64,000 nt of DNA from Bifidobacteriaceae bacterium. Lineage in GTDB: Bacteria > Actinomycetota > Actinomycetes > Actinomycetales > WQXJ01. Of the stretch, positions 15,564 through 62,919 are shown piece after piece (within the stretch, counting starts at the first letter, position 1; every line of letters starts with the position of its first letter). A program made the position numbers and the translations under genes. Where the stretch lies: positions 5,881 to 69,880 of the forward strand of contig JAITJZ010000010.1 in the NCBI GenBank assembly GCA_031278655.1. The letters run 5' to 3'. The notes beneath the pieces were generated by a model. That model was not told the DNA's origin. It searched no databases and saw only the letters and a program-made list of their open reading frames with translations.

Positions 15564-15572
15564 GGTCGGCGG

Positions 15573-18628: not shown

Positions 18629-18645
18629 CAGGGCACAATGGTTCC

Positions 18646-19864: not shown

Positions 19865-19890
<26 letters not shown>
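18646..19890 (+). CDS. aroC: Chorismate synthase
   Basis: [14 protein letters not shown]-terminus, with RPGHAD and SARETAARV motifs. The track ORF start (17941) lies in aroE out of frame. Confidence 0.93.
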
Positions 19891-27363: not shown

Positions 27364-28529
27364 GCGCGGAGGGCGAGCTGGCGCTGTTGGTGCTGGAGGA
27401 CGGGCGGCATTTCCGGGGGCGGCCGTTCGGCGCCCGCGGGACGGCGACCGGGGAGATCGTTTTCAACACGGCCATGACCGGTTACCAGGAGACGCTGACC
27501 GATCCGTCGTACCACCGGCAGATCGTGGTCATGACGGCGCCGCACATCGGCAACACCGGCGTCAACTCGGCCGACCCGGAGTCGGGGCGGATTTGGGTGG
27601 CCGGTTATGTTGTGCGGGACCCGGCGCCGCGACCGTCGAACTGGCGTTCGGAAGGTTCGCTGGAGGACGAATTGGCGGCGCAGGGGATTGTCGGCATGTG
27701 CGACGTCGACACCCGCGCCATCACGCTCCATCTGCGCGAACGCGGCGCCATGCGGGCGGGGCTGTTCACCGGGACGGCGGCCGTCGACGGGTTCGGGCGG
27801 CGCCGCCCCTACGAGGAGTTGGCGCAGGTGGTGCGCGGCGTGCCGCCGATGACGGGTCAAGACTTGGCCGGGGAGGTCACCGCCGCCGCGCCCTATCTGA
27901 TCTCGCCGCCGGACGGCACGCCGGTGGCGGCCACCGTCGTGGCCGTGGACCTGGGCATCAAAGGCATGACGCCGCAGTTGTTGGCCCGGCGCGGCGTGCG
28001 GGTCTGGGTGGTGCCGCGCTCGACATCGTTCGAGGAGGTCATGGCGCTGGCGCCGGACGGCGTCTTCTTCTCCAACGGGCCGGGCGACCCGGCGGCGGCC
28101 GGGTCGGAGCTGGAGTTGCTGCGGGCGGTGCTGGACGCGGGCGTGCCCTTCTTCGGCATCTGCTACGGCAATCAGTTGCTGGGCCGGGCCCTCGGCTTTG
28201 AGACCTACAAGCTGGGCTTCGGCCACCGCGGCGTCAACCATCCGGTGCTGGACCGCTCCACCGGCAAGGTCGAGATCACCGCCCACAATCACGGCTTCGC
28301 CGTCGATGTGCCCCTCGACGGCGGACCGGTGCTGGCCCCCTTCGGGGGCGGGCGCTTCGGCCGCGTCGAGGTTTCGCATGTGGACTTGAACGACCAGGTG
28401 GTCGAGGGCCTGCGCCTGCTCGACCGCCCCGCCTTCTCGGTCCAATACCACCCCGAGGCGGCCGCCGGCCCCCACGACGCCGCCTACCTGTTCGACCGCT
28501 TCCTGGACCTGATGCTCAGCTCGCGCTGA
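27360..28529 (+). CDS. carA: Carbamoyl-phosphate synthase small (glutaminase) subunit
   Basis: [26 protein letters not shown] and SVQYHPEA motifs. ATG 27360 forms an ATGA overlap with pyrC. No carB follows. Confidence 0.95.
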
Positions 28530-28743
28530 CACCAGCCGTGTCAGCCGTCGCCACGACCGGCAGCGGACCGAAGAACTCGGCCGGGTAGGCCCGGCCGTAG
28601 GGGTGGTCGTCATCGCCGGGCCCAAGCCAGGCCAGGTGCTCCCAAGCGCCCTCGCCGCAGGCGAAGGCGTGGGCCGAGTACCAAGGGGGCGGACCCGAGG
28701 GGCTCGCCGCCGGCGTCCGGGTCTTGGTGATTTCCTCGGCCAC
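28516..28743 (-). CDS. Small hypothetical ORF, or a C-terminal remnant of a degraded gene
   Basis: 75-codon ORF whose codon third positions are mostly G/C by eye, as in real genes here. No recognisable motif. Its last codons overlap the carA 3' end. Confidence 0.3.
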
Positions 28744-28924
28744 GCCCGGCAGTTGGCGCAGGAAACTGGTCTTGATAAAGGGCTTGAAGAATGATGTGAA
28801 GTTTCACATCACCCACCAAGACTCTGTCGAAGCACAACGGTGTCCGGGACAACCCAAGACCGCCGGCTCCCAAATCAATTTCAGGGATACGTGGGCCAAC
28901 CGCAGCAGTCCCCGCTGGTTCCGG

Positions 28925-30147
28925 TCAGGTCCACCCCAGGGCGATCCGGGCCTTCGCCGAAAGTTTGCCTTTGAACGCGCCCCGGCCCTTGCCCGCCTCG
29001 GGTCCGGTCGGGGCGGCCTGGAAACTCAACGCGCCGTGCTCCAAGACGTACTTCTCACGGTAGCCCCTGTACCTCTCCAGGTCGCGCAAGAAAGACCGGC
29101 GCCGCTACGGCGGGATGTAAGTCGACAAGGACTGGTCGAGGAAGAGCCGGCTATTGTCCCGGTACACCTGCTCCGCCACCCAGATCGGTCTCGCCGCCCC
29201 GGGGTAGACGCCGATGTCGAGGGTGAACTTCCCGGACCGGGGCGTGTTGCACTGGGTGTCGCGCCAGCACACCCACTGGGAGCCAGGCAGCTGGTCGATC
29301 AGCACGTCCGCGTAATAGATCGCCACCCTCTCCTGCATCCGCACCAACACGTCCCTGCTCAAACCGGTGTCCTTGTTAGCTTTGCCGCCCAGGACCGTCC
29401 AGGTCGGAGCCCAGTCGGCGCCGTCGTCGAACGGCCCCGACGTCACATCCAAGAACCAGCGCTCCAAGCCGACCAGCGACGCCGGCGTGCCCAACAACGG
29501 CGGCCCGCCGGTGGCCGCGACCAACTCCCGCAACTCGTCCACATGAGCCCGCTGGGTGGACATGAACCGGTCGAACAACTCGTCCGAAGCCGCCCAGAAC
29601 TTCTTCGTCCCCAGATCGTAGGGGACCTTCAACAAGTTCGGGATGCCGTCCGCGATCCCCTCCAAACCGGGCCAGCCGCTCACGGGCGCCCCAAGAAGAT
29701 GTAGTACGGGAACTTCGCGTCCTTCAACCACTGAAGCAGAGCCTCGTCCGGGCCGCACGCCCCCCGCTTGGACTCCTTGGCGAAAAACACATAGCCGATC
29801 GAATCGAAATCGAGCGCGTCCTTGTATGTGCTATCGCCGCTCATCGCCTCTGCGATGAGCCGGTCGGTGGTGACTTGCCCTTTCGCGCGGGAGGTGTGGC
29901 GGACCACGTAGGTCTTGTTCTCCAGGGCCATCTTGCCTTGGGCGGCCCTGATGACGTCCGGGTGCAACGTGTCGTTGACCCAGTCCATGGCGTCATCCAG
30001 GCCGCTGCCGATCACGTCCATGAGCCGTTTGGACTGGTCGGCTCCCGCCGGCAGGGGCAGGACCCGCTGGCGCGGCTCGACAACCCTCATCACATCACGC
30101 AGGATAGCGTCCCCGTCCGATTCGCGGGCCACCTCGACAAGACTCAC
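28925..30147 (-). pseudogene. Disrupted gene of unknown function (one frameshift plus one in-frame TAG)
   Basis: Track ORFs 29680-30147 and 29105-29758 join as ...KFPYYIFLG|APVSGWPGLEG... with a 1-nt frame change near ttcttgggg (about 29690-29700). After the TAG at 29105-29107 the same frame stays open for 59 more codons (RRRSFLRDLERYRGYREKYVLEHGAL...) to the TGA at 28925-28927. Confidence 0.6.
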
Positions 30148-49333: not shown

Positions 49334-49360
49334 ACTTGCATACTAGCCTTGTACGCAAGC
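49334..49360. promoter_or_regulatory. Candidate operator box upstream of the MFS-lactonase operon
   Basis: aCTTGCATACTAGCcTTGTACGCAAGc. The 13-mer CTTGCATACTAGC matches CTTGTATGGTAGC (46132-46144) at 10/13 positions, and both boxes end in GCAAGC. Confidence 0.3.
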
Positions 49361-49396
49361 CCCCAAAGGCCCCGGCTTTCCGCCCGGCCGCCGCCT

Positions 49397-50428
49397 TCAG
49401 GCGGCGGCGAACAGAGGCGCGTGGGCGGCCAGCGTCTGCGGCGGCACGGTCTTGAGGGTGGCGGTGGCCTCGGCCAGGGAGACGGTCTCAATGGCGCCAC
49501 CGCGCAGAGCCACCATGACACCGCTCTGGCCGCGATGCAGGGCCTCGACGCCAGCGGCGCCAAGGCGCGTGGTCAACACCCGGTCGAAGGCGCACGGGCT
49601 GCCCCCGCGCTGGACGTGGCCCAGCACCACCGAGCGAGTCTCAACGCCCGCCAACTCCGCCAGCCGGCCGGCCAAGAGGCCGGCGATCCCGCCCACCTGG
49701 ACGTGGCCGAACTCATCGACCGGCGCGCCGCTGTCGCCCTCGACGGCGCCGGCGCGAGCCACCGCCCCCTCCGCCACCACCACCACCGCGTCACGCCTGG
49801 CCGCCACCAACGCGCCGACCCGCGCGGCGACATCGGGCAGAGAAAACTCAACCTCCGGGATCAAAGCGGCGGCGGCCGAGGTCGCCAAACCGACATGCAG
49901 GGCGATCCAACCGGCGTGACGGCCCATGACTTCGACCACCAAGGCGCGGTGGTGCGAGCGGGAAGTGGTCCGCAGGCGGTCCACCGCCTCGGTGGCGATC
50001 TCGACCGCGGTGGTGAAACCGAAGGTCACGTCGGTGCCAGAAAGGTCGTTGTCGATGGTCTTGGGCACGCCGACGCAACGCACCCCGGCGCCGGCCAGCC
50101 GGGCCGCGGCCCCCAAGGTGTCCTCGCCGCCGATCGGCATCAGCGCGTCGACGCCGTCCGCCGCCAACTGGGCCTTGATCCGATCGATCCGGTCGGCGCG
50201 GCCGGCGTTGGTGCGCGAGGCGCCCAGGATGGTGCCGCCGAGCGGCAGGATCTCCTCGACGTCGGGCACCCCGAGGGGCTGGCTGAGACCCTCAAGGGGG
50301 CCGCGCCAGCCGTCGAGGTAGCCGATGAAATCATCACCGTGGGCGCGCGCGCCCTGCAAGACGGCCGCGCGGATGACGCCGTTGAGCCCGGGGCAGTCGC
50401 CGCCGCCGGTCAGCAAGCCGATCCTCAC
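49397..50428 (-). CDS. 6-phosphofructokinase paralogue (GGEDT / PKTIDND type)
   Basis: MRIGLLTGGGDCPGLNGVIRAAV, IGGEDT, PKTIDNDL and MGRHAGWIA motifs. Overlaps the upstream aldolase gene by 4 nt. Confidence 0.9.
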   Translation of the reverse strand: MRIGLLTGGGDCPGLNGVIRAAVLQGARAHGDDFIGYLDGWRGPLEGLSQPLGVPDVEEILPLGGTILGASRTNAGRADRIDRIKAQLAADGVDALMPIGGEDTLGAAARLAGAGVRCVGVPKTIDNDLSGTDVTFGFTTAVEIATEAVDRLRTTSRSHHRALVVEVMGRHAGWIALHVGLATSAAAALIPEVEFSLPDVAARVGALVAARRDAVVVVAEGAVARAGAVEGDSGAPVDEFGHVQVGGIAGLLAGRLAELAGVETRSVVLGHVQRGGSPCAFDRVLTTRLGAAGVEALHRGQSGVMVALRGGAIETVSLAEATATLKTVPPQTLAAHAPLFAAA

Positions 50429-51255
50429 GCGATCACCCCCAGGAGCCCGGCCACTGCCGCCGCCACCGCCTCGCGGGCGGGGGAGAAGTACTTGCGAGTG
50501 TCGACCAGTTCCGGAGCGGCCGCCAATTCGGCCCGGACCCGGCCGGTGAAAGTCTGGGACAACAGCGTGGCGATGTTGATCTTGGTCATCCCGGCCCGCA
50601 CCGCCGCCGCCAGATCGCCGTCCGCCACCCCGGACGAGCCGTGCAGCACCAAGGGGACCGGCACGGCCGCGTGGATGGCTGCGATCAAGTCGAAGTCCAA
50701 GAGGGCGGCGCGCGTGGTCATGGCGTGCGACGAGCCGACTGCCACGGCCAGGGAATCGACGCCGGTGGCGGCGACGAAGCCGGCGGCCGCGGCCGGGTCG
50801 GTCCTGACCCCTGGGGCGTGCGCACCGTCCTTGCCGCCGACCTCTCCCAACTCGGCCTCCACCCAGGCGCCGCGGGCGTGGGCGAGCGCGGCCACGGCCT
50901 CGGTGGCGGCCCGGTTGGCGTCATCGGGCAACTTCGAGCCGTCATACATTATCGAGTCCAACCCCAGGTCAAGCGCCTGGCCGATGAGCTCGAACGACTC
51001 GGCGTGGTCCAGGTGGACCGCCACCGGCACGTCCGCCGCTCGCGCCAACGCCTGACAGGCCGAGGCGATCGGGGCCAGCGCGCCGTGGTACTTGACGCAG
51101 TTCTGCGAAATCTGGAGGATGACGGGGCGGCCGGCCGCCTCCGCGCCGGCGGTGATGGCCTCGGCCAGCTCCAGTTGGATGACGTTGAAGGCGCCGACTC
51201 CGCGTCCAGCGGCGGCGGCGGGACGGATGACCTCGGCGGGGGGGACTAGTGGCAT
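50425..51255 (-). CDS. Class II fructose/tagatose-bisphosphate aldolase family protein
   Basis: VGAFNV, PVILQISQ, VAVHLDHAE and LVLHGSSG motifs of class II (FbaA/KbaY/GatY) aldolases. Confidence 0.85.
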   Translation of the reverse strand: MPLVPPAEVIRPAAAAGRGVGAFNVIQLELAEAITAGAEAAGRPVILQISQNCVKYHGALAPIASACQALARAADVPVAVHLDHAESFELIGQALDLGLDSIMYDGSKLPDDANRAATEAVAALAHARGAWVEAELGEVGGKDGAHAPGVRTDPAAAAGFVAATGVDSLAVAVGSSHAMTTRAALLDFDLIAAIHAAVPVPLVLHGSSGVADGDLAAAVRAGMTKINIATLLSQTFTGRVRAELAAAPELVDTRKYFSPAREAVAAAVAGLLGVIA

Positions 51256-51520
51256 GGAAGGGCCTCGATCTTGCCGGTGGCTGGCAGTTGCTCAAATTGG
51301 CGCATGTTCTGAATCCTGACGGTCAGCGTGAAGGGTGTCGCCCGAACAGTCTACGCGATTGCCGGCGCTCGACGAACGCCGAAACGCTCAATATTGCGCA
51401 GTGAACCCGCCTGAAGTGCGGTGGTGCGCGCGGGGGCCAATGAGCGATTATGATCAGATGTCAGCGCCCGCCGGGCGAGAGGACCAGACCAACCGGAGAG
51501 CGCCAAGGAAAGGTGTGACA

Positions 51521-52309
51521 GTGGACCGCTACCAGCGCATCGCCGCCCTGCTGGAGATGTTGGCCAAGAACGGCAAAGTCGAGGTCGAACAGGCCGTTGC
51601 CGCCCTCGGCGCCTCCGCCGCCACCATCCGCCGCGACCTCGTCTACCTGGACGAACAACGCCTGGCGAGGCGCACCCACGGCGGCGCCATCGCCAATTCA
51701 GGCTCGTTCGACTTGCCCTTGCGCTTCAAGACCGGCCGGGCCCTGGCCGAGAAGCAACGCATCGGAGCCGCCGCCGCCGCCCTGGCGCCCGTCGGCGGCA
51801 TCGTCGGCATCAACGGCGGCAGCACAACGCTGGAAGTGGCCCGGGGCTTGGCCGCGCGAGCCGACCTGGTCTCGACCGAGGGCGCGGGCCGGGCGCTGAC
51901 CATTGTCACCAACGCCGTCAACGTGGCCGGCGAATTGCTGGTCCGGCCCCAATTCAAGGTGGTGGTGACCGGCGGCGTGGTGCGCGCCCACTCCTACGAG
52001 CTGTTCGGGCCCCTGGCCGAGCGCTCACTCGAATCGCTGTCAGTGGAACTGGTGTTCCTCGGGGTCGACGGCTTCGACGCGGCCTTCGGCGCCAGCGCCC
52101 ACTCGGAGGCCGAGGCGTCCACCAACTCGATGCTGGCCCTGGCCGCCGCCAAGGTGGTGGTCGTCTGCGACGCGAGCAAAGTGGGGCGACGGGCCTTCGC
52201 CCAAATCTGCCCCCCGACCAAGGTCGACACCTTGGTCACAGACACCGGCGTGGCGCCGCAAGTGGCCGCCCAACTGAAATCCCTCGGCATCAAAGTGATA
52301 GCGGTCTAG
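51521..52309 (+). CDS. DeoR family transcriptional regulator
   Basis: HTH (RYQRIAALLEMLAKNGKVEVEQAVAALGASAATIRRDLVYLDEQ) plus a DeoR C-terminal sugar-phosphate sensor domain. GTG start at 51521 (or 51515); the upstream part of the track ORF is unsupported. Confidence 0.85.
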   Translation: MDRYQRIAALLEMLAKNGKVEVEQAVAALGASAATIRRDLVYLDEQRLARRTHGGAIANSGSFDLPLRFKTGRALAEKQRIGAAAAALAPVGGIVGINGGSTTLEVARGLAARADLVSTEGAGRALTIVTNAVNVAGELLVRPQFKVVVTGGVVRAHSYELFGPLAERSLESLSVELVFLGVDGFDAAFGASAHSEAEASTNSMLALAAAKVVVVCDASKVGRRAFAQICPPTKVDTLVTDTGVAPQVAAQLKSLGIKVIAV

Positions 52310-52442: not shown

Positions 52443-55400
52443 GTGATGACTGACCCGGTGTATGAGATCGACGGCTCTGCGCGCAGTTACTTCGAGGCTT
52501 TGTCGGAGTTTGACCGGCGTAATCTTGATTCCAGCGCGATCCCGACTTTCAAGGTCAGGGTCACCAATGCCACGGTGTTGAACCTGGTGCATCTGTTTTC
52601 GTGGCTTCAGGACCGGGACGGCGCCAATGCGGTGCAGCAGTGCAGGCTTGAGGTGGTCCTAGATCCTGCCGACCCGGAGCCGTACGCGCTGGCCGCGAGG
52701 GTCGCAGCGCTGCTGGGTTCGGAGGAGTGGATAAGGCGAATCGACAATTGGGACACCGCGGAGCATGCCGGGCGAACACGGCGAATCTTGCCGATGATCT
52801 CGATCAATGAGGATACCTATCAGGCGCTCGCCGATCCGGTCCGGAAATTGATCGGCCAGTCGAACGGATCGGAAGCCTTCAAAATAGTCCCTGAGGCGCC
52901 GCCGAAGAGCGACAAGAAAAACGAATCATTCCCTAGATTCGCCCTGCCCGAAGGGCTAGACAGTTCGGTGGCAGCGGTGATCGAAGTATGTGGACGGCTC
53001 CTGTTCATGATCGGTTCCGGAGATAAAGCCGAATCGAGGAGGAGGGTCGAATACAAGCGAAAAGTGTTGTTGAAACAAGATGAAGTTGGCCGCGAGGTTT
53101 TCCGCAGGACCGCAGATTGGCCTTTGCTGGCCTTCCTGCTCTGGACCGCGTTCGACAAAGCGGTCGATATTGCGGAATGTGATGAGCCGAAGCCGAGCCC
53201 GCTTGAAGGGCGGTGGTTGGAGCGTCTGGCCCAGCTCGAGCCGGACGTCCTTGATATCAGCGACGGATTGCTCCAGTTGGCGGAGAACGTTGTGGTCCAC
53301 GCGGGTCCCGACACATCGGAGGGCCGCGCGAAGGGCCGCGGCGTCCTAGCCCTGCGGGTGCACAGCCGGAAGGGCGAATGGCGAGACGGTCCGCTGGGTG
53401 AGCTTTATCCCAATTACTTCCTCGGACGCGACCGCCGTCGAATGATCAACGCGTGGCGCGAACCCAACTCCGGCGAAGATTGGCTGCGCGACCTGTCCAG
53501 CGACGATCTGCTGGACAGAGAATCACACCACCTGGGAGGGGCCGTCCAGCCCTCCTCGCCCGAGGAGCCCGAGGAGCCCGAATGGTGGCTTCGCAACCGC
53601 GCAGAGAGGGCCAGCCGTGAGAGCCGCCGTGGGCAAGTCCAGCAGTATTTGGAGGTCCGGCTAGCCGATCGCGGCGCCAGTGGGGTGGCGGCGACCTTTC
53701 GGGAACGCACTGAGAACGCCGACCTGAAGTCCATTGGCGACCTCCGCGGCTTTTTCGATCCGACGGCAAAGCAGCGGGAAGATTGGAGAACTTTCTCGGG
53801 CACACCTGTGAACGCCGTGAACCATTACGGCCTGGCATTGTTCGACTCGCTGCTCTCTGGCCTCGACGGGAGCCTTGGGGTGGCGAGCCGATCCCCCGAT
53901 GACGCTTGCGATATGTATTCGAGCAGCGGTGACGATCCTGACCAGGGCGGCGATGGCGCCAGCACGGCGGCATCCCTCGGCACACGCTATTCGCTCTTGA
54001 TACCGCTGCGGATGCGCCTGTCGCAGGCGGCGCCATTGGCCCATCACGCCCACGTCGACCTTCGCCTGCCCGCAGATGAGGAGGCCGAGCCGCTGTGCGT
54101 CGAAACGGTCGGCGCCGCGGACTGGAAGAGCTTTCGAGGCACGCTCGAAGGCTGTTCGCCGTCATCCCCCCAAACCAAGATCGGGCATGTTGAATCAGTG
54201 TCTGGCAGTGCCGTCGGCGCAACAGTCAACTGGGGTGTTGAACCGAGAATCGCGGTGTTTGACGCCAGCACGCTCAGCGGATACCAACTCGAAGTTCTGT
54301 GTAAGGCGATCTTGCTCTGGCTCCGCGGCAGGTCGACGACGCACGTGGCGATTCGTGTGCGGGACGAGCACCAGCTGCGCGTCTTGGTCCGGCTGCTGGT
54401 CGTGTTCTTCGACCGCGACGGTCAGAACGCGGCGCTTGAGGGCAGCCAGCTCTATCTGGTCGGTCCGCAGCCGGGTGACGAGTGGTGGCTCCCTGGCACT
54501 CATCTTGGTGACGCGGTCGCCGCGCAATTGAAGCTCTCCGCGGCACGGTCGGTGGGCGGGACCCTGACATCGCCGCTGACCGATGAGCTGACGCGGATGC
54601 TTGCCAGGCACCCCGGTGCGTCTCGGGCCTCGGCGGCGCCGCAGACGGTTCGCTACGAACCGTTTGACCTGAAGGTCAGCGCAGCCCCGAATTCTCCTGA
54701 GACGCTGTTTGATCGCGTTGCGCGGAAGGTGTTGGAGGCGGACATCCAAGACCCGTCAGGGCCGGGTTGCCGACTCGGGGACACGCACGTCCGGATTGGG
54801 TCGAAAGTGCACCTGGGCACCTTTTACGAGGCAGAGCTCCTATTTGGCAACCACTACTACGTCGATCGGTACGCCTGGCTTGTCCGGCGAGCGCTCAAAT
54901 TTCCGGAGCTCCCAGAAGACGAGGTAGCCGCGGTTGGCCAAGACGATGCCTGTTGCGTCATTGGTTATGAGACCTATTCGGAGATGTTGGTCAGGCGCGT
55001 CATCCAGCCGCGAGAGTTCGCTGACAAGCAGTGGATTTATGGGACTCTGGAGGCGGACGGTGACCGAATGCGGCTGCGCGGATTGGAGGCGATTAGCCGC
55101 GAGCCTTGGAATCCTGAGATGAAGCTTGTCTACCTGGTGCCAATTAGCACTACTATGTCCACCTTTCGCAAGATGGACAACGAAGTTCGGCGATGGTTCG
55201 CACAGACGTGGCCAAATTGTGGGCACGAGTTGCCCAAGCCAATCTGTATCACGGTCATCCATGTTCGTAGTGGCTCCGGCGCACAAGGTTCGAACCTAGA
55301 ACAGGAATTCTTCACCCAGCCCAACTCGGACATGAAATTGGTCAAGCTCCAGGAGCTCATCCAGCTCAAACCCCGGAAACCCCGGAAACCCCGGAAACCC

Positions 55401-55607
55401 CAACCCACAGCGACCTGGGTTCGCTACATCCATCAGGTGCAAGCCACCTGGATGGACCCCTTGGCCTGCTCTTATTGCTTCCCCAATGGGGGTTCTGCGA
55501 TCGAGTTGCCACTGGCCGAGCCGGGCAAGTCCCCGGTTGTGCTGTCGCAACTGTTTGGCCGCAAGCCTCAGCCGCCAAGCGCCCTTCGAGCGGATTCGCC
55601 GCGATGA
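52443..55607 (+). CDS. Island gene A: large cytoplasmic protein with GHKL (Bergerat-fold) ATPase motifs and a degenerate PRTase-like C-terminal module
   Basis: 1054 codons. AAGAGG sits 6 nt before ATG 52446 (GTG 52443 is also possible). N-box-like LLQLAENVVVHAG (aa 276-288), G1-like LADRGASGV (407-415), G2-like NHYGLALFDSL (460-470), closing strand GTRYSLLIPL (513-522). C-terminal CCVIGYETYSEMLV...KLVYLVPISTTMSTFRKM...CSYC. No TM segment. Confidence 0.85.
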   Translation: MMTDPVYEIDGSARSYFEALSEFDRRNLDSSAIPTFKVRVTNATVLNLVHLFSWLQDRDGANAVQQCRLEVVLDPADPEPYALAARVAALLGSEEWIRRIDNWDTAEHAGRTRRILPMISINEDTYQALADPVRKLIGQSNGSEAFKIVPEAPPKSDKKNESFPRFALPEGLDSSVAAVIEVCGRLLFMIGSGDKAESRRRVEYKRKVLLKQDEVGREVFRRTADWPLLAFLLWTAFDKAVDIAECDEPKPSPLEGRWLERLAQLEPDVLDISDGLLQLAENVVVHAGPDTSEGRAKGRGVLALRVHSRKGEWRDGPLGELYPNYFLGRDRRRMINAWREPNSGEDWLRDLSSDDLLDRESHHLGGAVQPSSPEEPEEPEWWLRNRAERASRESRRGQVQQYLEVRLADRGASGVAATFRERTENADLKSIGDLRGFFDPTAKQREDWRTFSGTPVNAVNHYGLALFDSLLSGLDGSLGVASRSPDDACDMYSSSGDDPDQGGDGASTAASLGTRYSLLIPLRMRLSQAAPLAHHAHVDLRLPADEEAEPLCVETVGAADWKSFRGTLEGCSPSSPQTKIGHVESVSGSAVGATVNWGVEPRIAVFDASTLSGYQLEVLCKAILLWLRGRSTTHVAIRVRDEHQLRVLVRLLVVFFDRDGQNAALEGSQLYLVGPQPGDEWWLPGTHLGDAVAAQLKLSAARSVGGTLTSPLTDELTRMLARHPGASRASAAPQTVRYEPFDLKVSAAPNSPETLFDRVARKVLEADIQDPSGPGCRLGDTHVRIGSKVHLGTFYEAELLFGNHYYVDRYAWLVRRALKFPELPEDEVAAVGQDDACCVIGYETYSEMLVRRVIQPREFADKQWIYGTLEADGDRMRLRGLEAISREPWNPEMKLVYLVPISTTMSTFRKMDNEVRRWFAQTWPNCGHELPKPICITVIHVRSGSGAQGSNLEQEFFTQPNSDMKLVKLQELIQLKPRKPRKPRKPQPTATWVRYIHQVQATWMDPLACSYCFPNGGSAIELPLAEPGKSPVVLSQLFGRKPQPPSALRADSPR
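55368..55401 (+). repeat. 9-bp tandem repeat (aaaccccgg x3.8) encoding KPRKPRKPRKP inside gene A
   Basis: Direct reading: aaaccccgg at 55368, 55377 and 55386, plus aaacccc at 55395. The period is a multiple of 3. Confidence 0.9.
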
Positions 55608-58600
55608 GCGCTCCCACCCAAGGCGGGCCGCTGGGCGGCCACCCCAATTGGCTGTTCGGTCTCAAACCGAACGCAACGCCACCAGATCGATGCAATAACG
55701 ATGCGCTGGTACGCGACGCCCTGTCCGACGTGTGCTACGGCCACCTGCGCTTGGGCCAGAACGACTTCGAGTTCGCGCTGAACATGGGCGCCTTTTTCAG
55801 CCACAACGAGCCCCGTGTCAGGGCTTGGCTCTCCCAGATCAGCAGCCCAGATCCGAAGCGGCCGCCAGACGGGCAAGCGTTCAACGTCCTGGTTTCGCCG
55901 CTGACGTCACGAAATGCCGCGTTTGTGGCCGCCGTCAACGAGGAGGTCTTCAAGGGCGCTGCCCAAGTGGTCGGCGTGGATGTCGAGGCCGAGTTCAAGG
56001 ATTCTTTCGCCGTCAGGTACGCCGATTTGCGCGCCCTTCGGAGAGACTTGGAAGGGACCGGGCTGAGGCTCGTCCTACATTACGTCGACGACGCCACCGT
56101 CCGCGGCCTCAGCCTGTTGCGCTTGCGCTCGCTGGTGACAGAGCTGTTCGGCGACCGGCGTCACGGCGGCGGCGAAGATTCCCAGAGGGCTGGGGCGCAG
56201 GTGTTTCATTCGGTGTTCGTGCTGGTGGACCGTTGGTCGCCGAACACCTGGAGGAATCTGCTCCAAGACTTCGATCCCCTGGTGCACAGCTACCTCGACA
56301 TCTGGGCGCCCCATCTCAACACGTTTACCAGCGTCTGTCCCGTGTGCCAGGTCAACGATCACCTGCACAAGGCCGAGGACGGCTGTGCAACGGCCCTGCT
56401 GGCGGGGGAAATCCGCTCTCTGCGGATGCGCGAGACGGAGCCGATCCGCTTTGACCGACTGATCGCGCATCAAGCCGAGCCCGCACAGGACCGCGGCGCC
56501 GCGAAGCCCAGGCTCATCCGTTGCTCGAATGGGCAACCTATGCCGGAGCCGGTCCCGGATAGCTGGAAGGGAAGACAAGAGGTCGGCCGTCGCCGCCTGT
56601 GGTGGCGACACCTGCTCACCTACGGGCTGAGACATCTCGGCAGCGAGCCGTTCGTGTCCGGCTCGGACCAGAGCGGCGGTGAGGTTTGGGAGAAGGACCT
56701 GATCAATTGCCCGTCGATCGTCGCCGCCTATCTGATCACAAAGCTGGACCAGATCGCTCGCGGTCGGCCGAGCGAAGTCCCGGGGACACCTGCGGAGCTT
56801 CCCGTCGATCATTTCGCGGCCGCAATCTGGGCCGCCACCACTGGCGAATTGGCGGACCGAAAGTCGGTCCGAGAGGCCGCGTTGGCCGTTGTCAACGGGC
56901 TGATCTTGACCCTGCTAAAGCCTCCGAGAGGTAATGGCGACTGGGCGGCGCCCCCGGCGCCGGGATGGACGGAGGAGCCAGTCCTGGCACAGGTCCAATC
57001 AGCCCGTGAGCAGATGCAGAACCGATGGGCACGCCTGGTCAAGGCACTGGATGGCTTGGCCAAGCAAAAAGAATTCGACCGTTCAATGAGCGACACAACG
57101 GCGTGGGAGAGCCTGCTGCGCTGCCTGATGCGAGCCACTTCAGAATTGGGCGGCACATTGCTGCTTCGTCGGGACACGATGATCCGGGTCTTCGCTTGCG
57201 GAGCCAGCCGCGGCGTGAATCTCCAGCGGCTGATGACCTACTACGTCTACTGCCTGAAGCTGCTGACAAGTCGCGGCCCGGATCGCGCCAAGTCGGCGTT
57301 TCTCGACTACCTGCTGCTCTCAGGGAGCGAAGTCCAGGGCAAGCCGACGAGTTTGCCGTCGCCGCAGGTCCCCTCCAGGACGGTTGGTCAACAGTTTGTC
57401 GATGCTCCGAGCAACAGGTTGGCTATTCCGGATGACATCAAGGCGCGGCTTGCCGAATTCGTGGACTTGGCCTACATCGAGAACACGAAGTGCCTGGAGG
57501 CAGTCATCGATGACATGGGGCCGCTCAGCGCTGGCCAGCCGTCAGAGGCAGATGGGCACGAATACCTGCCGGAGTACTCAGCCGAGTGCCTGACCGGGTG
57601 GCGTTGGCAGGCGGGCTCCGGGCCGGATCTAAACCAGGCGCATGAACTGGCTAGATTGCTCCGGGAGACGGCAGACCTCGTCAGCCCAAACCACCACTCT
57701 GACCCACACAGCGCTTACGACCGGCCGCTTTCCAAGTTGAATGAGCTGTGGGCGTTCTGCCTGGGAAAAGAGTCCGCCAAGTGCGAGGCGCTGCTCGCCC
57801 TGGAGACCCCCGAAGACACGCTCGCGCTGTCCAGCCTGGAGACGGCGCCGATCAGTGCCGGGAGTGCTCAGCCCGCATTCGTCTTGCCGTCATCCGCTTA
57901 CACACAATATGAAGTTGAGCTTGAAGAGAAACCTCGGCATGTCACTTTGGGCCAGTCTGGCGTGGCCCATGAGGTCTGCGCGGTTCAACAATTGGCGCAA
58001 GAAGCCAAAGTCTTCGAGGCAACGTGGCAGGGGACGATTTCCAGTGGGGGCCCTGTTGTTGGCCTGGGGCGGCAGCCCGTTGACGCGGGCGCCGGCACCC
58101 GTCCTTCGATTGTCTTCGGTTTGTCGGCGGCGCAGGAGTCGCAATACCCCGAGGCATACTGCCTGATCAGGCTCGGTTTGACTCCTGACCGCGGCGGCTC
58201 CACGGAGGCAACTCTATTTCTGCACGCGGGGCTCGAGAATGATGAAAAGGTGGACGCGGCCAAGCTGATGAACGCCGTCAGGATCGTGGCCATATTTAGA
58301 GGCAGAATGCTGGACAGACTCCGCTCCGAACAGCGGCGCGGTGTCCTTGACTCTGTCATCACAGGAAAGCTGATCGAGCAGGCTTACGTAAAACAGGGCG
58401 CTCTGGATCACGGTCAGCCGTCTGACAACATCGGGCAGACAACGGGCCTAGCCAAGTACATTGAAGAAGACACAAAGTTCGGTCTTGGCGGGGACGGCCC
58501 CGGCGGCCGGAAGGCCTACGCGCAGGCGCTGAGTGGATACGTCAACTCAGGCATAGCTCAACTCAACCGAGCTGTGGTCATCTATCGGTCGAGGTCCTCA

Positions 58601-59281
58601 ACCACGAGCCCGCAATCCGGTTCGCTCTCCGGTCTGCTCGAGTCGCTCGGGCCAAAGTTTGCCGCCGCCCTGCCGCCCCGCGCCGACCATACACTGACGA
58701 GGATCCTGAGCGCCTGTCGGTCCCTGCCGGGACTCCAGGATCAATCCAAACTGTGGTTGGGTCGTCCCCTCACGAAGGAGCGGCAGGAGGCCGTGGAAGC
58801 GGACGGGGACAGGGTCACGTCATGGATCAACAAGGTGTCAGGAGAGTTCTCGCTTCGGCAAGTCCCCAACTCCGATGGCGATCTGAAGTTGGTTCTCACC
58901 GACCTGGTCCACGTCACCGTCGTGGCCAGCCTGGTTGACAGCGCCGCCCGCCACGGCGCCGGACCGATTCTCGTGGAGGTGGATGAGCACGGATACCTCT
59001 ATGTCACCAACCAAGTCCGCGATGACTTCGACCTTGAATCGATCAGGCGGGGGTTGGCGAGGGACGCCGGCATCTCGCTGCCGGCGGTCGCCGACCTGTT
59101 CTACGAGTCTTCGGGGGATGATAGGAATACCACCGCAGCACATGGACAGCCACGGGGTGTTCGTATAGCATTCGCCGAAGGGCGCCCACCGCCGCCAGTG
59201 AGCTGGCCTGGGAGGCAGCATGACCTGCAAAGTAATAAGTGGCTGAGCGTGGGGGTGCCGCTTTTCCAGCGGTCGACCTGA
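55604..59281 (+). CDS. Island gene B: PRTase-like N-terminal module, long helical body, degenerate histidine-kinase-like ATPase C-terminus
   Basis: 1225 codons from ATG 55604 (ATGA overlap with the gene A stop). PRPP-loop-like LRLVLHYVDDATVRGLSLL (aa 154-172) then CPVC (245-248). C-terminal LVHVTVVASLVDSAARHGAG / ILVEVDEHGYLYVTNQV / AGISLPAVADLF / GVRIAF...WLSVGVPLF follows the N, G1, G2 order of HATPase domains, but the key Asn and Gly residues are replaced. Confidence 0.85.
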   Translation: MSAPTQGGPLGGHPNWLFGLKPNATPPDRCNNDALVRDALSDVCYGHLRLGQNDFEFALNMGAFFSHNEPRVRAWLSQISSPDPKRPPDGQAFNVLVSPLTSRNAAFVAAVNEEVFKGAAQVVGVDVEAEFKDSFAVRYADLRALRRDLEGTGLRLVLHYVDDATVRGLSLLRLRSLVTELFGDRRHGGGEDSQRAGAQVFHSVFVLVDRWSPNTWRNLLQDFDPLVHSYLDIWAPHLNTFTSVCPVCQVNDHLHKAEDGCATALLAGEIRSLRMRETEPIRFDRLIAHQAEPAQDRGAAKPRLIRCSNGQPMPEPVPDSWKGRQEVGRRRLWWRHLLTYGLRHLGSEPFVSGSDQSGGEVWEKDLINCPSIVAAYLITKLDQIARGRPSEVPGTPAELPVDHFAAAIWAATTGELADRKSVREAALAVVNGLILTLLKPPRGNGDWAAPPAPGWTEEPVLAQVQSAREQMQNRWARLVKALDGLAKQKEFDRSMSDTTAWESLLRCLMRATSELGGTLLLRRDTMIRVFACGASRGVNLQRLMTYYVYCLKLLTSRGPDRAKSAFLDYLLLSGSEVQGKPTSLPSPQVPSRTVGQQFVDAPSNRLAIPDDIKARLAEFVDLAYIENTKCLEAVIDDMGPLSAGQPSEADGHEYLPEYSAECLTGWRWQAGSGPDLNQAHELARLLRETADLVSPNHHSDPHSAYDRPLSKLNELWAFCLGKESAKCEALLALETPEDTLALSSLETAPISAGSAQPAFVLPSSAYTQYEVELEEKPRHVTLGQSGVAHEVCAVQQLAQEAKVFEATWQGTISSGGPVVGLGRQPVDAGAGTRPSIVFGLSAAQESQYPEAYCLIRLGLTPDRGGSTEATLFLHAGLENDEKVDAAKLMNAVRIVAIFRGRMLDRLRSEQRRGVLDSVITGKLIEQAYVKQGALDHGQPSDNIGQTTGLAKYIEEDTKFGLGGDGPGGRKAYAQALSGYVNSGIAQLNRAVVIYRSRSSTTSPQSGSLSGLLESLGPKFAAALPPRADHTLTRILSACRSLPGLQDQSKLWLGRPLTKERQEAVEADGDRVTSWINKVSGEFSLRQVPNSDGDLKLVLTDLVHVTVVASLVDSAARHGAGPILVEVDEHGYLYVTNQVRDDFDLESIRRGLARDAGISLPAVADLFYESSGDDRNTTAAHGQPRGVRIAFAEGRPPPPVSWPGRQHDLQSNKWLSVGVPLFQRST

Positions 59282-59321: not shown

Positions 59322-59948
59322 ATGACCGAAAATCAGCCGTCATTCGTTGTAATTGATGACGATCCCGGGCAGGCTGAGCGAATCATGGCCCGGCTGAGCG
59401 ACATTTACCCTGGAGCGACGCCGGTCCGAGTCACTCCCAGCGGCGACACACAATCTCTCGACCGCGGCAACACGATTCCCAGGTCGGATGAGGATGCTCA
59501 GGGCTACGTGCCTGGCAGCACCAACTGGACGCGGTTCATTGAGTCCTTGAACACACTGGCCAGTGGGAATGGCGTCGGTGAGACCTTCGTCATAATCGAC
59601 ATGGTTCTAAATAAGAGCGATCAGAAGGCGTTCACCAATGAACTCAGAACCGGATTCGGCGTCTGGTATCCAAGAGCCGTGGTCGAGATCGTGGCCGCGC
59701 TGTTGAAGGACGGCGCGCAGAATCCTCCATGGATTGTCTTGACAAGTGCCTACCTCGGGTTTCACCCGCGTAACCTCGCTGATCGGCTCCGTGCGCTGAA
59801 GCCCCCTCCCGGCGGTGGAGATGATCAGATCTGCTGGATGCCTTTAGTCATGTTCACGCAGGCGAGCTGGTACTCTGACGCAGAGGTTAAGATGCACCTC
59901 CAGGGCCATCTTGGCCGCGTGTTTCAACCCGACCCGGTAAACAGTTGA
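59322..59948 (+). CDS. Island gene C: stand-alone CheY-like receiver (REC-like) protein with insertions
   Basis: 208 codons. SFVVIDDDPGQAERIMARL (acidic pocket), ETFVIIDMVL (candidate phospho-acceptor D93), PWIVLTSAY (T141/S142), LRALKPP (possible conserved K160-P). Confidence 0.75.
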   Translation: MTENQPSFVVIDDDPGQAERIMARLSDIYPGATPVRVTPSGDTQSLDRGNTIPRSDEDAQGYVPGSTNWTRFIESLNTLASGNGVGETFVIIDMVLNKSDQKAFTNELRTGFGVWYPRAVVEIVAALLKDGAQNPPWIVLTSAYLGFHPRNLADRLRALKPPPGGGDDQICWMPLVMFTQASWYSDAEVKMHLQGHLGRVFQPDPVNS

Positions 59949-61258
59949 CCGCCGCCGCAATGGCTGCGAACAGGTCGGCGGGCGCCCAGTTCGCGGATGC
60001 GGCAATGGCTGCGGTCTTGGACAAAGCGTTCAGGCCGGCCGTGCCGAGGCTCTTCCACTACACCACGCTCGACACCATGTGGAAGATCCTTGAGGGTCAG
60101 GAGCTGTGGGCCACGCACGCGCGATTCTCGAACGACGCTCAAGAAGTCGAGTTGGGCAAGAAGTTGTTGCTCGGCGGCACGAAAACCGATTCCGTGGATG
60201 AGCTGTTCAACCCGTTCGTGGTCTGCCTGTGCGAGAACGGTGACCTCCTCAGCCAGTGGCGGGCGTACGCGCGTGATGGCGTGGCGATCGAGTTGGCGTT
60301 CCCGCCGAGTTCAACAGTCAGAATTATCAAGGATCAGGATCAGGATCAGAAGGTCACCGGAGAGATCGACGGTCTGAGGCCGTACAGAGTGTTCTACGGC
60401 GATGCGGCAGTGTTGAACGATTCCGATCAGACGCACATCGCCGACAGCCAGATTGTGATTTCGTCGGCCGCGGTGACAGGGGACGGCGGGAGCGTCATCA
60501 AGGTAAGTGAACTCGGCGAAAGAGTCAGGAGTGCGGCTGAGACCGGCGGACTCTCAGAGGACGATTTGCTCAAAGCGCTGCTTCCGTACGTCAAGAGCAG
60601 CGGTTTCAAAGAAGAGAGCGAGTGGCGATTGGTCGTCGACCTGTCCCTCCCGGACTTCGCAAGGTTTCGCCAGGCGATCGGCTACCAGGACAACCCAAAT
60701 TTGCCGTCAACGAGGCGACCCTATTTGCGGTTGAAGTATGGGGCCGCCGGGTCCGGCGCCGATGGCGTCACAGTCGATGTCCCGCAGAAGGTCAGTCGTG
60801 CCTGGTCAGACTTTCAGCGTAAGACAGGCACGACGAAAGCGACTGGGCTCAAGAAGGAAGTGCTGCGCGAGTTGGGGAAACTGGGACCGCCGGTCAAGTT
60901 TCGGACACCTCCCGGCTATGGGCGACGCTCGGGCGACGAGACCTATGACATCTCGATCATCACGGAAAACGCCAAAGACGCGGAGGCGGTGTTCGAAGCT
61001 GTTGGGGCGGCGCTGTTGCCGCTCACCAGCGAGAGCCTGGGCGGCGAGGCCACCGACCCGGCGCTTGGCAACAAGGTCAACGTCTGGTGGGGCAACGTCT
61101 GGCCCATCCGTTCGATCCGAGTCGGACCGCACCCGAGGATCGACGAGGTGAAAGAGGCGATCACGCACTATTGCTCGACTCAGTGGTGGATTCGGCAGGT
61201 CAAGGTCGTCGGATCGAGCATTCCGTACCGTCCGCCGCGCAGGCAGGCCGGAGAGTGA
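59945..61258 (+). CDS. Island gene D: DUF2971-like protein
   Basis: 437 codons. TTG 59945 overlaps the gene C stop (TTGA); an ATG alternative lies at 59960. RLFHYTTLDTMWKILEGQELWATHARFSNDAQE, FVVCLCENGDLLSQWRAYARDGVAIELAF and KSSGFKEESEWRLVV follow the DUF2971 motif order. Confidence 0.8.
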   Translation: MTAAAMAANRSAGAQFADAAMAAVLDKAFRPAVPRLFHYTTLDTMWKILEGQELWATHARFSNDAQEVELGKKLLLGGTKTDSVDELFNPFVVCLCENGDLLSQWRAYARDGVAIELAFPPSSTVRIIKDQDQDQKVTGEIDGLRPYRVFYGDAAVLNDSDQTHIADSQIVISSAAVTGDGGSVIKVSELGERVRSAAETGGLSEDDLLKALLPYVKSSGFKEESEWRLVVDLSLPDFARFRQAIGYQDNPNLPSTRRPYLRLKYGAAGSGADGVTVDVPQKVSRAWSDFQRKTGTTKATGLKKEVLRELGKLGPPVKFRTPPGYGRRSGDETYDISIITENAKDAEAVFEAVGAALLPLTSESLGGEATDPALGNKVNVWWGNVWPIRSIRVGPHPRIDEVKEAITHYCSTQWWIRQVKVVGSSIPYRPPRRQAGE

Positions 61259-61446
61259 CGCGCTCCAACCGAGTCGTTGGGCGGCCCGCCCCGGCGCCGG
61301 GGACGCGGCGATGGTCACAGTTTGATTGCGCCAGCGCGTGACGCTGGCGCGGGGTGGTAAACTCGCCGAGCCGTCTTCGTGGCCTCGCGGCCGCTCGGGC
61401 GGCGTGTCCTGTCCGTTTCTATAACCAAAGACGAGTCTTACATTCT

Positions 61447-62919
61447 ATGACAACATCCCTACCCGCAGCAGTCTCTGAGGCCCCGGTGCCCGAAGTCGCC
61501 GTCAACGACATCGGCACAAGCGAAGACCTGCTGGCCGCCATCGACGGCACGATCAAGTACTTCAACGATGGCGACATCGTTGAGGGAACTGTGGTCAAAG
61601 TCGACCGCGACGAGGTCCTCCTCGACATCGGCTACAAGACGGAAGGCGTTATCCCGTCGCGTGAGCTGTCCATCAAACACGACATCGATCCCTCGCAGAT
61701 CGTCTCCGTCGGCGACAAGGTCGAAGCCCTCGTCCTCCAGAAGGAGGACAAAGAAGGCCGTCTGATCCTGTCGAAGAAGCGGGCTCAATACGAGCGCGCC
61801 TGGGGCGCGATCGAGAAGATCAAAGAAGCCGACGGCATTGTCACCGGCACCGTCATCGAAGTCGTCAAGGGCGGCTTGATCGTTGACATCGGGCTGCGCG
61901 GGTTCCTGCCGGCCTCGCTGGTGGAGATGCGGCGCGTGCGCGACCTGCAGCCCTATGTGGGTCAAGAGCTGGACGCCAAGATCATCGAACTCGACAAGTC
62001 GCGCAACAACGTGGTCCTGTCGCGCCGCTCCTGGCTCGAACAGACTCAGTCCGAGGTCCGCTCGACCTTCTTGTCCCAGCTCAAAGAGGGCCAAGTGCGC
62101 ACGGGCGTTGTCTCATCGATCGTCAACTTCGGGGCCTTCGTGGACCTGGGCGGGGTCGACGGACTGGTCCACGTCTCCGAGCTGTCCTGGAAGCACATCG
62201 ACTACCCGAACGAGGTTGTGCACGTCGGCCAGGAGGTCACTGTCGAGGTCCTGTCGGTCGAGCTCGACCGCGAGCGGGTCTCGCTGTCCCTCAAGGCCAC
62301 CCAGGAAGACCCGTGGCAGTTGTTCGCGCGCACCCACGCCATCGGCCAGGTGGTGCCCGGCAAGGTCACCAAACTGGTGCCCTTCGGCGCCTTCGTGTCC
62401 GTCGAGGACGGGATCGAGGGCCTGGTGCACATCTCCGAGTTGGCGGTGCGCCACGTCGAGCAGCCTGAGCAGGTCGTCAAGGTCGGTGAGACGGTCTTCG
62501 TCAAGGTCATCGACGTGGACCTGGACCGCCGCCGCATCTCGTTGTCCCTCAAGCAGGCCAACGAGGGCGTGGACCCGGAGGGCGACGATTCGACCTTCGA
62601 CCCGGCGCTCTACGGCATGGCCGCCGAGTACGACGACGACGGCAACTACAAGTACCCCGAGGGCTTCGACCCGGAGACGAACGAGTGGATGGAGGGCTTC
62701 GAGGCCCAGCGCCAAGCCTGGGAGGAAGCCTACGCCGACGCCTTGGCGCGCTGGCAGGCGCACAAGGCCCAGGTTTCGACCGCCCGCGCGGCCGACCAGC
62801 ACGCGGCCGTCGAAGACGGCACGGCCACGGACTACCGCTCCGAGTTGTCGCAGACCGAGGGCACCTTGGCCTCGGACGAGGCGTTGGCCGCCCTGCGGGA
62901 GAAGCTGACCAGCAACTGA
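61447..62919 (+). CDS. rpsA: 30S ribosomal protein S1
   Basis: Four S1 repeats (GDIVEGTVVKVD..., GTVIEVVKGGLIVDIG, GVVSSIVNFGAFVDLG, GKVTKLVPFGAFVSV) and an acidic C-terminus. ATG at 61447. Confidence 0.95.
   Translation: MTTSLPAAVSEAPVPEVAVNDIGTSEDLLAAIDGTIKYFNDGDIVEGTVVKVDRDEVLLDIGYKTEGVIPSRELSIKHDIDPSQIVSVGDKVEALVLQKEDKEGRLILSKKRAQYERAWGAIEKIKEADGIVTGTVIEVVKGGLIVDIGLRGFLPASLVEMRRVRDLQPYVGQELDAKIIELDKSRNNVVLSRRSWLEQTQSEVRSTFLSQLKEGQVRTGVVSSIVNFGAFVDLGGVDGLVHVSELSWKHIDYPNEVVHVGQEVTVEVLSVELDRERVSLSLKATQEDPWQLFARTHAIGQVVPGKVTKLVPFGAFVSVEDGIEGLVHISELAVRHVEQPEQVVKVGETVFVKVIDVDLDRRRISLSLKQANEGVDPEGDDSTFDPALYGMAAEYDDDGNYKYPEGFDPETNEWMEGFEAQRQAWEEAYADALARWQAHKAQVSTARAADQHAAVEDGTATDYRSELSQTEGTLASDEALAALREKLTSN

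Follow-up and report, generated by a model that had tools for sequence, protein, structure and literature searches.

What is the protein encoded by the long open reading frame at 52443-55607 of this stretch, and what do the genes beside it contribute? The stretch, called the window below, comprises 64,000 nucleotides of a Bifidobacteriaceae genome (contig JAITJZ010000010.1). The original prediction, made from the sequence alone, saw in this gene (gene A) a GHKL-superfamily ATPase whose motifs are split by a large insert. That interpretation is supported and can be refined: the domain appears GHL-like and not kinase-like, it sits in one half of a split giant protein, and the C-terminal third of gene A resembles a phosphoribosyltransferase (PRTase). 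Gene B encodes the other half of the giant protein and is followed by a small gene, C, and by gene D, which belongs to the DUF2971 family. With a probability of roughly 0.6, the A+B protein is the large subunit of a three-component cassette with C and D, in which a GHKL-switched sensor would control an ADP-ribosylating toxin.

A predicted Bergerat-fold domain in gene A

The open reading frame 52443-55607 (+) is real. Translation likely starts at ATG 52446, which has AGAGG (in the context AAAGAGG) 7 nt upstream, and this start gives 1053 residues. Residues are numbered from this ATG. The original prediction began at a GTG one codon before, so that its E281, N282 and D409 are E280, N281 and D408 here. 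The features that carry the assignment are as follows.

52446-55607 (+): gene A, 1053 residues, N-terminal half of a split giant protein (open reading frame, ribosome-binding site with ATG, homologues)
53193-54020 (+): predicted Bergerat-fold (GHKL, GHL-like) ATP-binding domain, residues ~250-525 (AlphaFold2 models, Foldseek, motif conservation)
53268-53306 (+): motif I or N-box, LLQLAENVVVHAG, with Q277, E280 and N281, residues 275-287 (conservation; on helix 257-285)
53661-53687 (+): motif II or G1, LADRGASGV, with D408, residues 406-414 (conservation; end of strand 400-408)
53820-53852 (+): motif III or G2, NHYGLALFDSL, with H460 and G462, residues 459-469 (conservation; N-terminus of helix 462-472)
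53979-54008 (+): motif IV or G3, GTRYSLLIPL, with G512, T513 and P520, residues 512-521 (conservation; strand 512-521)

All four motifs had been named before, in GHKL order, and a check of the sequence finds each exactly where it was placed. The motifs are more than a chance occurrence: their key residues vary little or not at all in an alignment of gene A with 39 relatives (40 sequences, 22-57% identity to gene A). Invariance in this alignment is limited to 20 columns of gene A, five of which (N281, H460, G462, G475 and P520) belong to the proposed motifs or to the closing strand. In motif I, N281 is found in 40/40 sequences, E280 in 38/40 and Q277 in 37/40, the other three having Glu. D408 of motif II is kept in 39/40 and is followed by variable glycines, the position two residues on being Ser in 33/40 and the next Gly in 20/40. 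In motif III, H460 and G462 occur in every sequence and Y461, L463 and F466 in 39/40; G462 is its sole invariant glycine (HHYGLQLF). In motif IV, G512 and T513 are present in 39/40 and P520 in 40/40. The family consensus reads DGLLQLIENxVxHAG ... YLEVxxxDxSG ... NxxHHYGLQLFxSL..DGCFxVxS ... YSSSGD ... PGTQYxILxPF.

AlphaFold2 was used to model the full-length protein with the 40-sequence alignment (predicted local distance difference test, pLDDT, 81; predicted TM-score, pTM, 0.82) and, separately, residues 215-545 (pLDDT 82, pTM 0.84). In both models, the N-box helix spans residues 257-285 and is followed by strand 299-307, and strand 400-408 ends in D408. A lid of several short helices occupies residues 414-459, and G462 starts helix 462-472. 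Strands 476-482 and 489-492 come next, and the closing strand 512-521 begins at G512-T513. This is the order and position of GHKL motifs I-IV, and each motif lies on the secondary-structure element where a Bergerat fold would be expected to have it.

The fold search proposed with that prediction was run on the model of residues 215-545, and its best PDB matches are all GHKL domains, though with weak scores. Ranks 1-26 are all GHKL proteins (Hsp90 N-domains of several species, and CheA). The best match is the Hsp90 N-domain 2xcm_A (E 1.6e-3, probability 0.77), and unrelated proteins appear only at E > 1. Among the top nine matches in BFVD, an independent library, are a giant-virus Hsp83, the ATPase subunit of a phage topoisomerase and two viral histidine kinases, each at E >= 0.07. 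Structure prediction places residues 270-525 in the Bergerat fold, and sequence profiles do not: none detects the domain. In addition, an hhalign comparison of the GHKL profile with a single MORC-like HATPase_c_3 protein, encoded next to related locus L007, was uninformative. For residues ~250-525, the models predict a nucleotide-binding domain of the Bergerat fold, in which the four GHKL motif positions are conserved. Motifs and predicted fold make this domain a new member of the GHKL superfamily, and an extremely divergent one.

Relation to the GHL branch and nature of the insert

The distance from G462 to T513 is 45-59 residues in the family, with two strands between. The corresponding G2-to-G3 spacing is ~47-50 residues in Hsp90, GyrB and MutL and ~20-25 residues in histidine kinases. 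This spacing and the top structural match, Hsp90, point to a GHL-like and not to a kinase-like domain. Further, the alignment has no invariant or near-invariant histidine before N281, so that there is no phospho-accepting histidine of a DHp domain or H-box. The family segment Y-S-S-S-G-D echoes the Hsp90 segment Y-x-W-E-S-x-A-G-G.

In GyrB, MutL and Hsp90, the general-base glutamate (E42, E29 and E33, respectively) lies four residues before the asparagine of motif I. The residue in this position is Gln277, with the frequencies given above. The substitution suggests that ATP is bound with slow or no hydrolysis, unless E280 substitutes for the missing base, and it makes a slow, ATP-dependent conformational or dimerisation switch likelier than a fast ATPase. 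The remaining glycine motifs are atypical as well, G1 being reduced to D-x-S/G and G2 consisting of one glycine plus the invariant histidine.

53367-53642 (+): insert of ~92 residues, 308-399, in the hairpin between N-box strand 299-307 and G1 strand 400-408 (model)

The original prediction had put the insert between N-box and G1 at about 120 residues. The insert is real and its acidic, proline-rich segment SSPEEPEEPEWW is present (residues 370-381), where it forms the loop joining the insert's two helices; the size comes down to ~92 residues in the model. The N281-to-D408 distance is 127 residues in gene A, and the canonical GHKL N-to-G1 distance is ~25-42 residues. Within the family this distance is bimodal: the closer relatives have 105-139 residues, a more distant subfamily 46-60. 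Of the ~92 residues, ~65-70 are specific to one subfamily, and an N-to-G1 segment longer by 20-30 residues is found in all members. The insert is more than a mere linker, since its helices 352-363 and 377-396 are modelled at pLDDT ~90 and its motifs RDxRRxIN, SSDDLL and HLGG are kept in a 51%-identical homologue.

Gene B and the giant-protein family

55604-59281 (+): gene B, 1225 residues, C-terminal half of the split giant protein; its ATG overlaps the TGA of gene A as ATGA (sequence, alignment)

Gene A aligns to residues ~1-1050 of single-chain relatives of ~2,000-2,200 residues, and gene B to residues 972-1721 and 1909-1988 of one of these, the 2019-residue P0008. Since A and B align to successive parts of single-chain proteins, the alignments identify them as two halves of one giant protein, ~2,280 residues together. 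The same split is seen in the actinobacterial loci L002 and L004 and in the ~1,000-residue matches P0005, P0006 and P0014. A split common to several actinobacterial copies is a real fission and not a sequencing error. In L001/L003 (JAIROU010000137.1, 2176-5223), the gene A homologue is cut once more, into a 174-residue open reading frame and an overlapping one of 842 residues; a second fission or a frameshift in the metagenome-assembled genome (MAG) would account for it.

A word-index search gave two relatives of gene A only, even with the 40-sequence profile: a 98% copy in Logan and, in another Bifidobacteriaceae MAG, a partial homologue at 51%. A third Bifidobacteriaceae MAG, reached by a genome scan, has a homologue at 40%. 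For gene B, a Bifidobacteriaceae MAG encodes a protein of 100% identity. The family was exposed by an exhaustive HMMER scan of 1.84 billion representatives, which returned 934 proteins at E <= 1e-3, 78 of them at E <= 1e-30. Most members are single chains of 1,950-2,350 residues and nearly all are metagenomic. Genes A, B and C have no match in Pfam, NCBIfam, PADLOC or PHROGs, and four fused relatives have no substantial match in Pfam or PADLOC.

Genes C and D and the conserved cassette

59322-59948 (+): gene C, 208 residues, small conserved partner with invariant Asp93 (position in related loci)
59945 or 59960 to 61258 (+): gene D, 432-437 residues, DUF2971 ADP-ribosyltransferase-like protein, putative effector (Pfam, PHROGs, synteny)

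The start of gene D overlaps or closely follows the stop of gene C. The protein matches Pfam DUF2971 (PF11185) with 24.4 bits against a cut-off of 22, and phrog_1762 at E 1.3e-10. Its Y103 and E219-x-E221 are invariant in four homologues, and the motifs HYT, THxRFSND, LLSQWRxY, FxEExExRL and WPIRSIxVGP are retained to the most distant copy. The fold of DUF2971 is reported to be that of a DarT/AbiGi-like ADP-ribosyltransferase, in which a Tyr and ExE are conserved (PMC12522546). It also makes up the whole of Aristaios, a lactococcal antiphage protein of the abortive-infection type (PMC11381338).

Seven independent related loci have enough flanking DNA for comparison (L004, L005/6, L007/8, L009, L010, L011 and L012). 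In 7/7 the giant gene is accompanied by a small gene (171-188 residues) and a D homologue of 378-519 residues, and the small gene frequently overlaps the stop of the giant gene. Gene C is 31% identical to its L004 copy, divergent yet constant in position. The L004 locus (JAITLE010000030.1, 129-9364), a 40%-identical copy, has the rotated order C-D-A-B in place of A-B-C-D and keeps the A/B split. The most distant cassette, L011, lies beside a SIR2 gene; its small partner has no detectable similarity to gene C, and its 519-residue D homologue (14756-16312) is recognisable only by FYYTS, LLYLWKMYA, FQAEAESRLV and WPIVSLTVGP.

D93 is the only invariant functional-looking residue of gene C and ends a hydrophobic, strand-like run, and by eye the protein is possibly CheY- or receiver-like. 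Could the cassette then be a phosphorelay, in which A/B is a histidine-kinase-type protein kinase that phosphorylates C at Asp93, and C controls D? As in Detocs and two-component systems, one operon unites an effector, a GHKL-type protein and a small protein whose invariant Asp comes after a hydrophobic strand. The closing motif GT-x-Y-x-[IL]-L-x-P is similar to "GT..f.f.LP", the G3 of histidine kinases, the fold matches include CheA and viral histidine kinases, and gene C shows a receiver-like order of elements (an N-terminal (I/V)DD, a hydrophobic run, LIDL, to D93, and a later (V/I)(I/L)S). Unlike in those systems, there is no Hpt and, before the domain, neither an invariant histidine nor an H-box/DHp signature; the G2-to-G3 spacing is not that of the histidine kinases cited above, and the best fold matches are to Hsp90. 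As a CheY-like receiver, gene C lacks profile support, having no Response_reg match (eight members, E <= 10), and it has no conserved Lys; the DD is missing in the L011 copy. The phosphorelay is unlikely, and is by a narrow margin the most probable of the alternatives.

The neighbours of the related loci are integrases, a PD-(D/E)xK protein and an SMC-like ATPase pair (L005); a DNA methylase with a MORC-like HATPase_c_3 protein, and an HNH protein (L007); a ScoMcrA-like SBD-HNH protein and clpC/radA in a Bacillota-type context (L009); a SIR2 protein (L011); and HD-CE, ParA/ParB, DUF3801 and a TraG-type coupling protein (L012). Such settings are typical of defence islands or mobile elements.

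The same settings admit a different function, that of a weapon or addiction module of a mobile element (a toxin-antitoxin set, or a factor akin to polyvalent proteins) which would aid maintenance or establishment of the element and not immunity of the host. The L012 relative lies inside a conjugative-element region and others stand beside integrases, D is toxin-like, and conjugative elements and phages are known to encode giant multidomain proteins that contain PRTase and ADP-ribosyltransferase (ART) domains (PMC5512222). However, the cassettes of the window and of L009 stand alone between housekeeping genes, with no transfer or integration genes, and a search of 72,556 plasmid records, 50,697 phage records and IMG/VR found no copy. 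Defence systems commonly ride on such elements, so the contexts do not discriminate between the two functions. This alternative is improbable and ranks below the phosphorelay.

The remainder of gene A

54078-54650 (+): middle alpha/beta region, residues 545-735, with invariant E616 and K620 (model, conservation)
54948-55445 (+): PRTase-like domain, residues ~835-1000, with VYLVPISTTMSTF loop (Foldseek of the full model)
55368-55401 (+): 9-nt perfect tandem repeat AAACCCCGG, in overlapping copies, encoding KPRKPRKPRKP in a loop of gene A (repeat search)
55467-55478 (+): CxxC (C1008, C1011), invariant in 40/40 (40-sequence alignment)

Residues 1-215 are alpha/beta and helical and poorly conserved. 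The ~300 residues after the ATPase domain had been described as having no recognisable motif. This holds for residues 545-735, which gave no recurrent Pfam match among 19 family members; the last third, in contrast, matches the PRTase fold and ends in the invariant CxxC. The middle region has further near-invariant positions at R649, Y655 (Phe in gene A), Q668 and E679. A Pfam match of gene A to EACC1 (E 0.14, residues 609-646) was judged a chance match, since it is absent from the scan of 19 family members. One of the 19 members matched Pfam YxiF (PF24715) in the middle region at E 3e-5, and the other 18 did not.

Searching the PDB with the full gene A model by Foldseek gave type I PRTases only among the top 50 matches (HGXPRT, HPRT, PyrR and XPRT; E 4e-3 to 3e-2, probability up to 1.0). 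The match was assigned to residues ~835-1000 from the secondary structure and the loop KLVYLVPISTTMSTFRK, a placement by inference. The acidic pair of the phosphoribosyl pyrophosphate (PRPP) motif is replaced by V898-P899-I900 (37-38/40), and the S/T-rich loop is conserved (T903 39/40, T906 40/40, K909 40/40). There is no Pribosyltran Pfam match in gene A. The modelled C-terminal third matches the PRTase fold but is without the acidic pair; because this pair is replaced by V-P-I, the protein is not filed as a PRTase enzyme.

The CxxC follows the PRTase-like region, an arrangement reminiscent of the zinc-finger-plus-PRTase layout of ComFC. Upstream of it, H781 and H789 are invariant and, together with H460, are the only invariant histidines of gene A. 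From their conservation, H781, H789, C1008 and C1011 may form a metal (zinc) site. The loop encoded by the tandem repeat is poorly modelled (pLDDT < 50 at residues 980-984). The 98%-identical homologue P0001 is six residues shorter here, with KPREAEP instead of KPRKPRKPRKPQP, so the tract varies in length between strains.

Two parts of gene B stand out by eye. Residues ~95-250 look like a second PRTase-like module (YGH..., then LVLHYVDDATVRG with DD kept) followed by CPVC. Residues ~1100-1225 look like a degenerate ATPase-like C-terminus (ASLVDSAARHG...GISLPAV...VPLF) that lacks the Asn and DxG and is conserved with P0008. Paralogy of the PRTase-like modules of A and B was not supported: hhalign aligned HxDxFYEAELLF with HFxYYxxTexyF at a probability of only 0.3.

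Proposed mechanism

How might such a cassette work? It would have reached this genome as a horizontally acquired island. The GHL-like domain would bind Mg-ATP through N281, D408, the H460-G462 loop and T513 and, with Gln at the catalytic position, would act as a slow nucleotide-dependent conformational or dimerisation switch inside the very large A+B sensor. The PRTase-like modules would bind a nucleotide-type or nucleic-acid ligand without PRPP chemistry. PyrR and ComFC are non-catalytic precedents among the PRTases. A discussion of such precedents is found in PMC5512222.

Upon a trigger such as the entry of a phage or of foreign DNA, the giant protein would release or activate D. Here, D would ADP-ribosylate DNA or another essential target in the manner of DarT, so that growth of the cell or the invader stops, and C would serve as adaptor or inhibitor. 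Control of a defence effector by a GHKL domain has been proposed for VcSduA (PMC12137116), and a defence function of the cassette is plausible. A broader proposal is that the cassette is a widespread, undescribed anti-phage or anti-plasmid immune system (~930 clusters at 50% identity), in which an E-to-Q, ATP-locked switch gates a DarT-like effector. This proposal is tentative and is given somewhat less than even odds.

The least probable alternative is that the Bergerat-like domain is a pseudo-ATPase relic which binds no nucleotide, so that other domains, such as the PRTase-like ones, would do the work of the protein: Gln in place of the catalytic Glu, the lost G1 glycines, the single G2 glycine, the long lid, the 92-residue insert and the failure of sequence profiles would fit it, but the ligand-contacting N281, D408, G462, G512 and T513 stay invariant or near-invariant at 22-57% identity while their surroundings vary, which argues for selection for nucleotide binding.

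Several results weigh against the reading of the giant protein as a GHKL-switched sensor in a defence cassette. The fold-search statistics are weak: with a best E of 1.6e-3 and TM-scores of 0.19-0.28, no match reaches E <= 1e-3. The HATPase_c-type Pfam models (HATPase_c, HATPase_c_3, HSP90 etc.) do not match gene A at E <= 1 or the GHKL regions of 30 family members even at E <= 10, and phmmer and family-profile searches against PDB sequences returned nothing. The glycines of G1 are variable. An integrase or other defence gene was looked for beside the island in the window and none was found, and the absence of copies from the plasmid, phage and IMG/VR records counts here too. No model of PADLOC-DB v2 matches genes A, B, C or D or the four fused relatives. 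Lastly, the roles given to C and the PRTase-like modules, and the trigger, are guesses.

Comparison with known systems

The domain is like the GHL ATPases (Hsp90, MutL, GyrB/Top6B, MORC/paraMORC) in the order and placement of motifs I-IV and in a G2-to-G3 segment of ~50 residues with two strands. A large region follows the ATPase domain in both, and that of gene A holds the invariant lysine K620. It differs from them in having Gln for Glu (37/40), a G1 of the form D-x-S, extra N-to-G1 length and no profile match. In addition, it is fused to PRTase-like modules, and the S5-fold transducer domain of the GHL ATPases is not demonstrated in gene A.

Other defence-context proteins also have an N-terminal GHKL domain with proposed effector control: VcSduA of Shedu type I-D (PMC12137116) and SLFN-pAgo-GHKL (10.64898/2026.05.29.728809). 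Their GHKL domains match HATPase_c and are fused to a nuclease or Argonaute, whereas here the ART-like effector is a separate protein and the carrier has ~2,100 residues.

The cassette is linked to DarTG and Aristaios through gene D, whose family, DUF2971, has the reported DarT/AbiGi-like fold and includes Aristaios. Unlike DarTG, the cassette of the window has no macrodomain or NADAR antitoxin. Unlike both, D has at its C-terminus a further conserved domain (WPIRSIxVGP...PYR) and in every case occurs together with the giant protein and C. The PRTase-like region shares with type I PRTases and their non-catalytic relatives (HGXPRT, PyrR, ComFC) the fold match and a hydrophobic strand followed by an S/T-rich loop (T903, T906). 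It differs by V-P-I in place of the acidic pair and by the lack of a Pribosyltran match, and the gene B copy, by eye, keeps VDD. A description of the giant-protein/C/DUF2971 cassette was not found in PADLOC-DB v2 or in the literature searched, a limited library that is no proof of its being unpublished.

If the proposed reading is true, a family of hundreds of clusters, mostly metagenomic Bacillota-like and actinobacterial, has been left blank by current annotation, with proteins of ~2,100 residues that have essentially no Pfam coverage. The cassette would represent a new wiring of a GHKL nucleotide switch to an ADP-ribosylating toxin. Its GHKL domain would be divergent enough for structure prediction alone to show the kinship, and the Gln would be a possible natural design of an ATP-bound "trap". 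The PRTase-fold modules without a catalytic acidic pair would be possible ligand sensors, and the DUF2971 enzyme a further testable object. The actinobacterial gene fission gives natural domain boundaries, which may ease expression compared with single chains of 2,100 residues.

The island and its surroundings

51335-52309 (+): DeoR-family regulator, left flank, host gene (Pfam; GC content at third codon positions, GC3, 0.85)
61354-62919 (+): ribosomal protein S1 (rpsA), right flank, host gene (Pfam; GC3 0.87)

Genes A-D form a low-GC island between these two genes. The GC content of the window is ~70% overall and falls to ~62% across 52-62 kb. The four island genes, all on the + strand, have GC 0.58-0.63 and GC3 0.68-0.78; host genes have GC ~0.70 and GC3 0.81-0.94. 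Further upstream of the island lie sugar-acid catabolism genes, a GntR regulator, an MFS transporter and phosphofructokinase. A search of the window found no tRNA at the island borders and no sign of a mechanism of insertion. The low-GC island is bracketed almost exactly by a weak, imperfect inverted repeat of 23 nt (78% complementary; 52252-52274 and 61276-61298). This repeat may have arisen by chance in DNA of high GC content, or it may be left over from the insertion.

Just 5' of the DeoR gene is a 568-residue open reading frame (49349-51055, +) with a host-like GC3 of 0.81 and no Pfam match, which is overlapped by two long open reading frames on the opposite strand (49397-50428 and 50425-51255, both -). 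Other stretches of the window also depart from host composition: GC is 0.666 at 28-30 kb, and the open reading frames 27306-28625 and 17941-19890 have GC3 of 0.72 and 0.77, respectively. The stretches 27306-30000 and 17941-19890 may be further acquired DNA.

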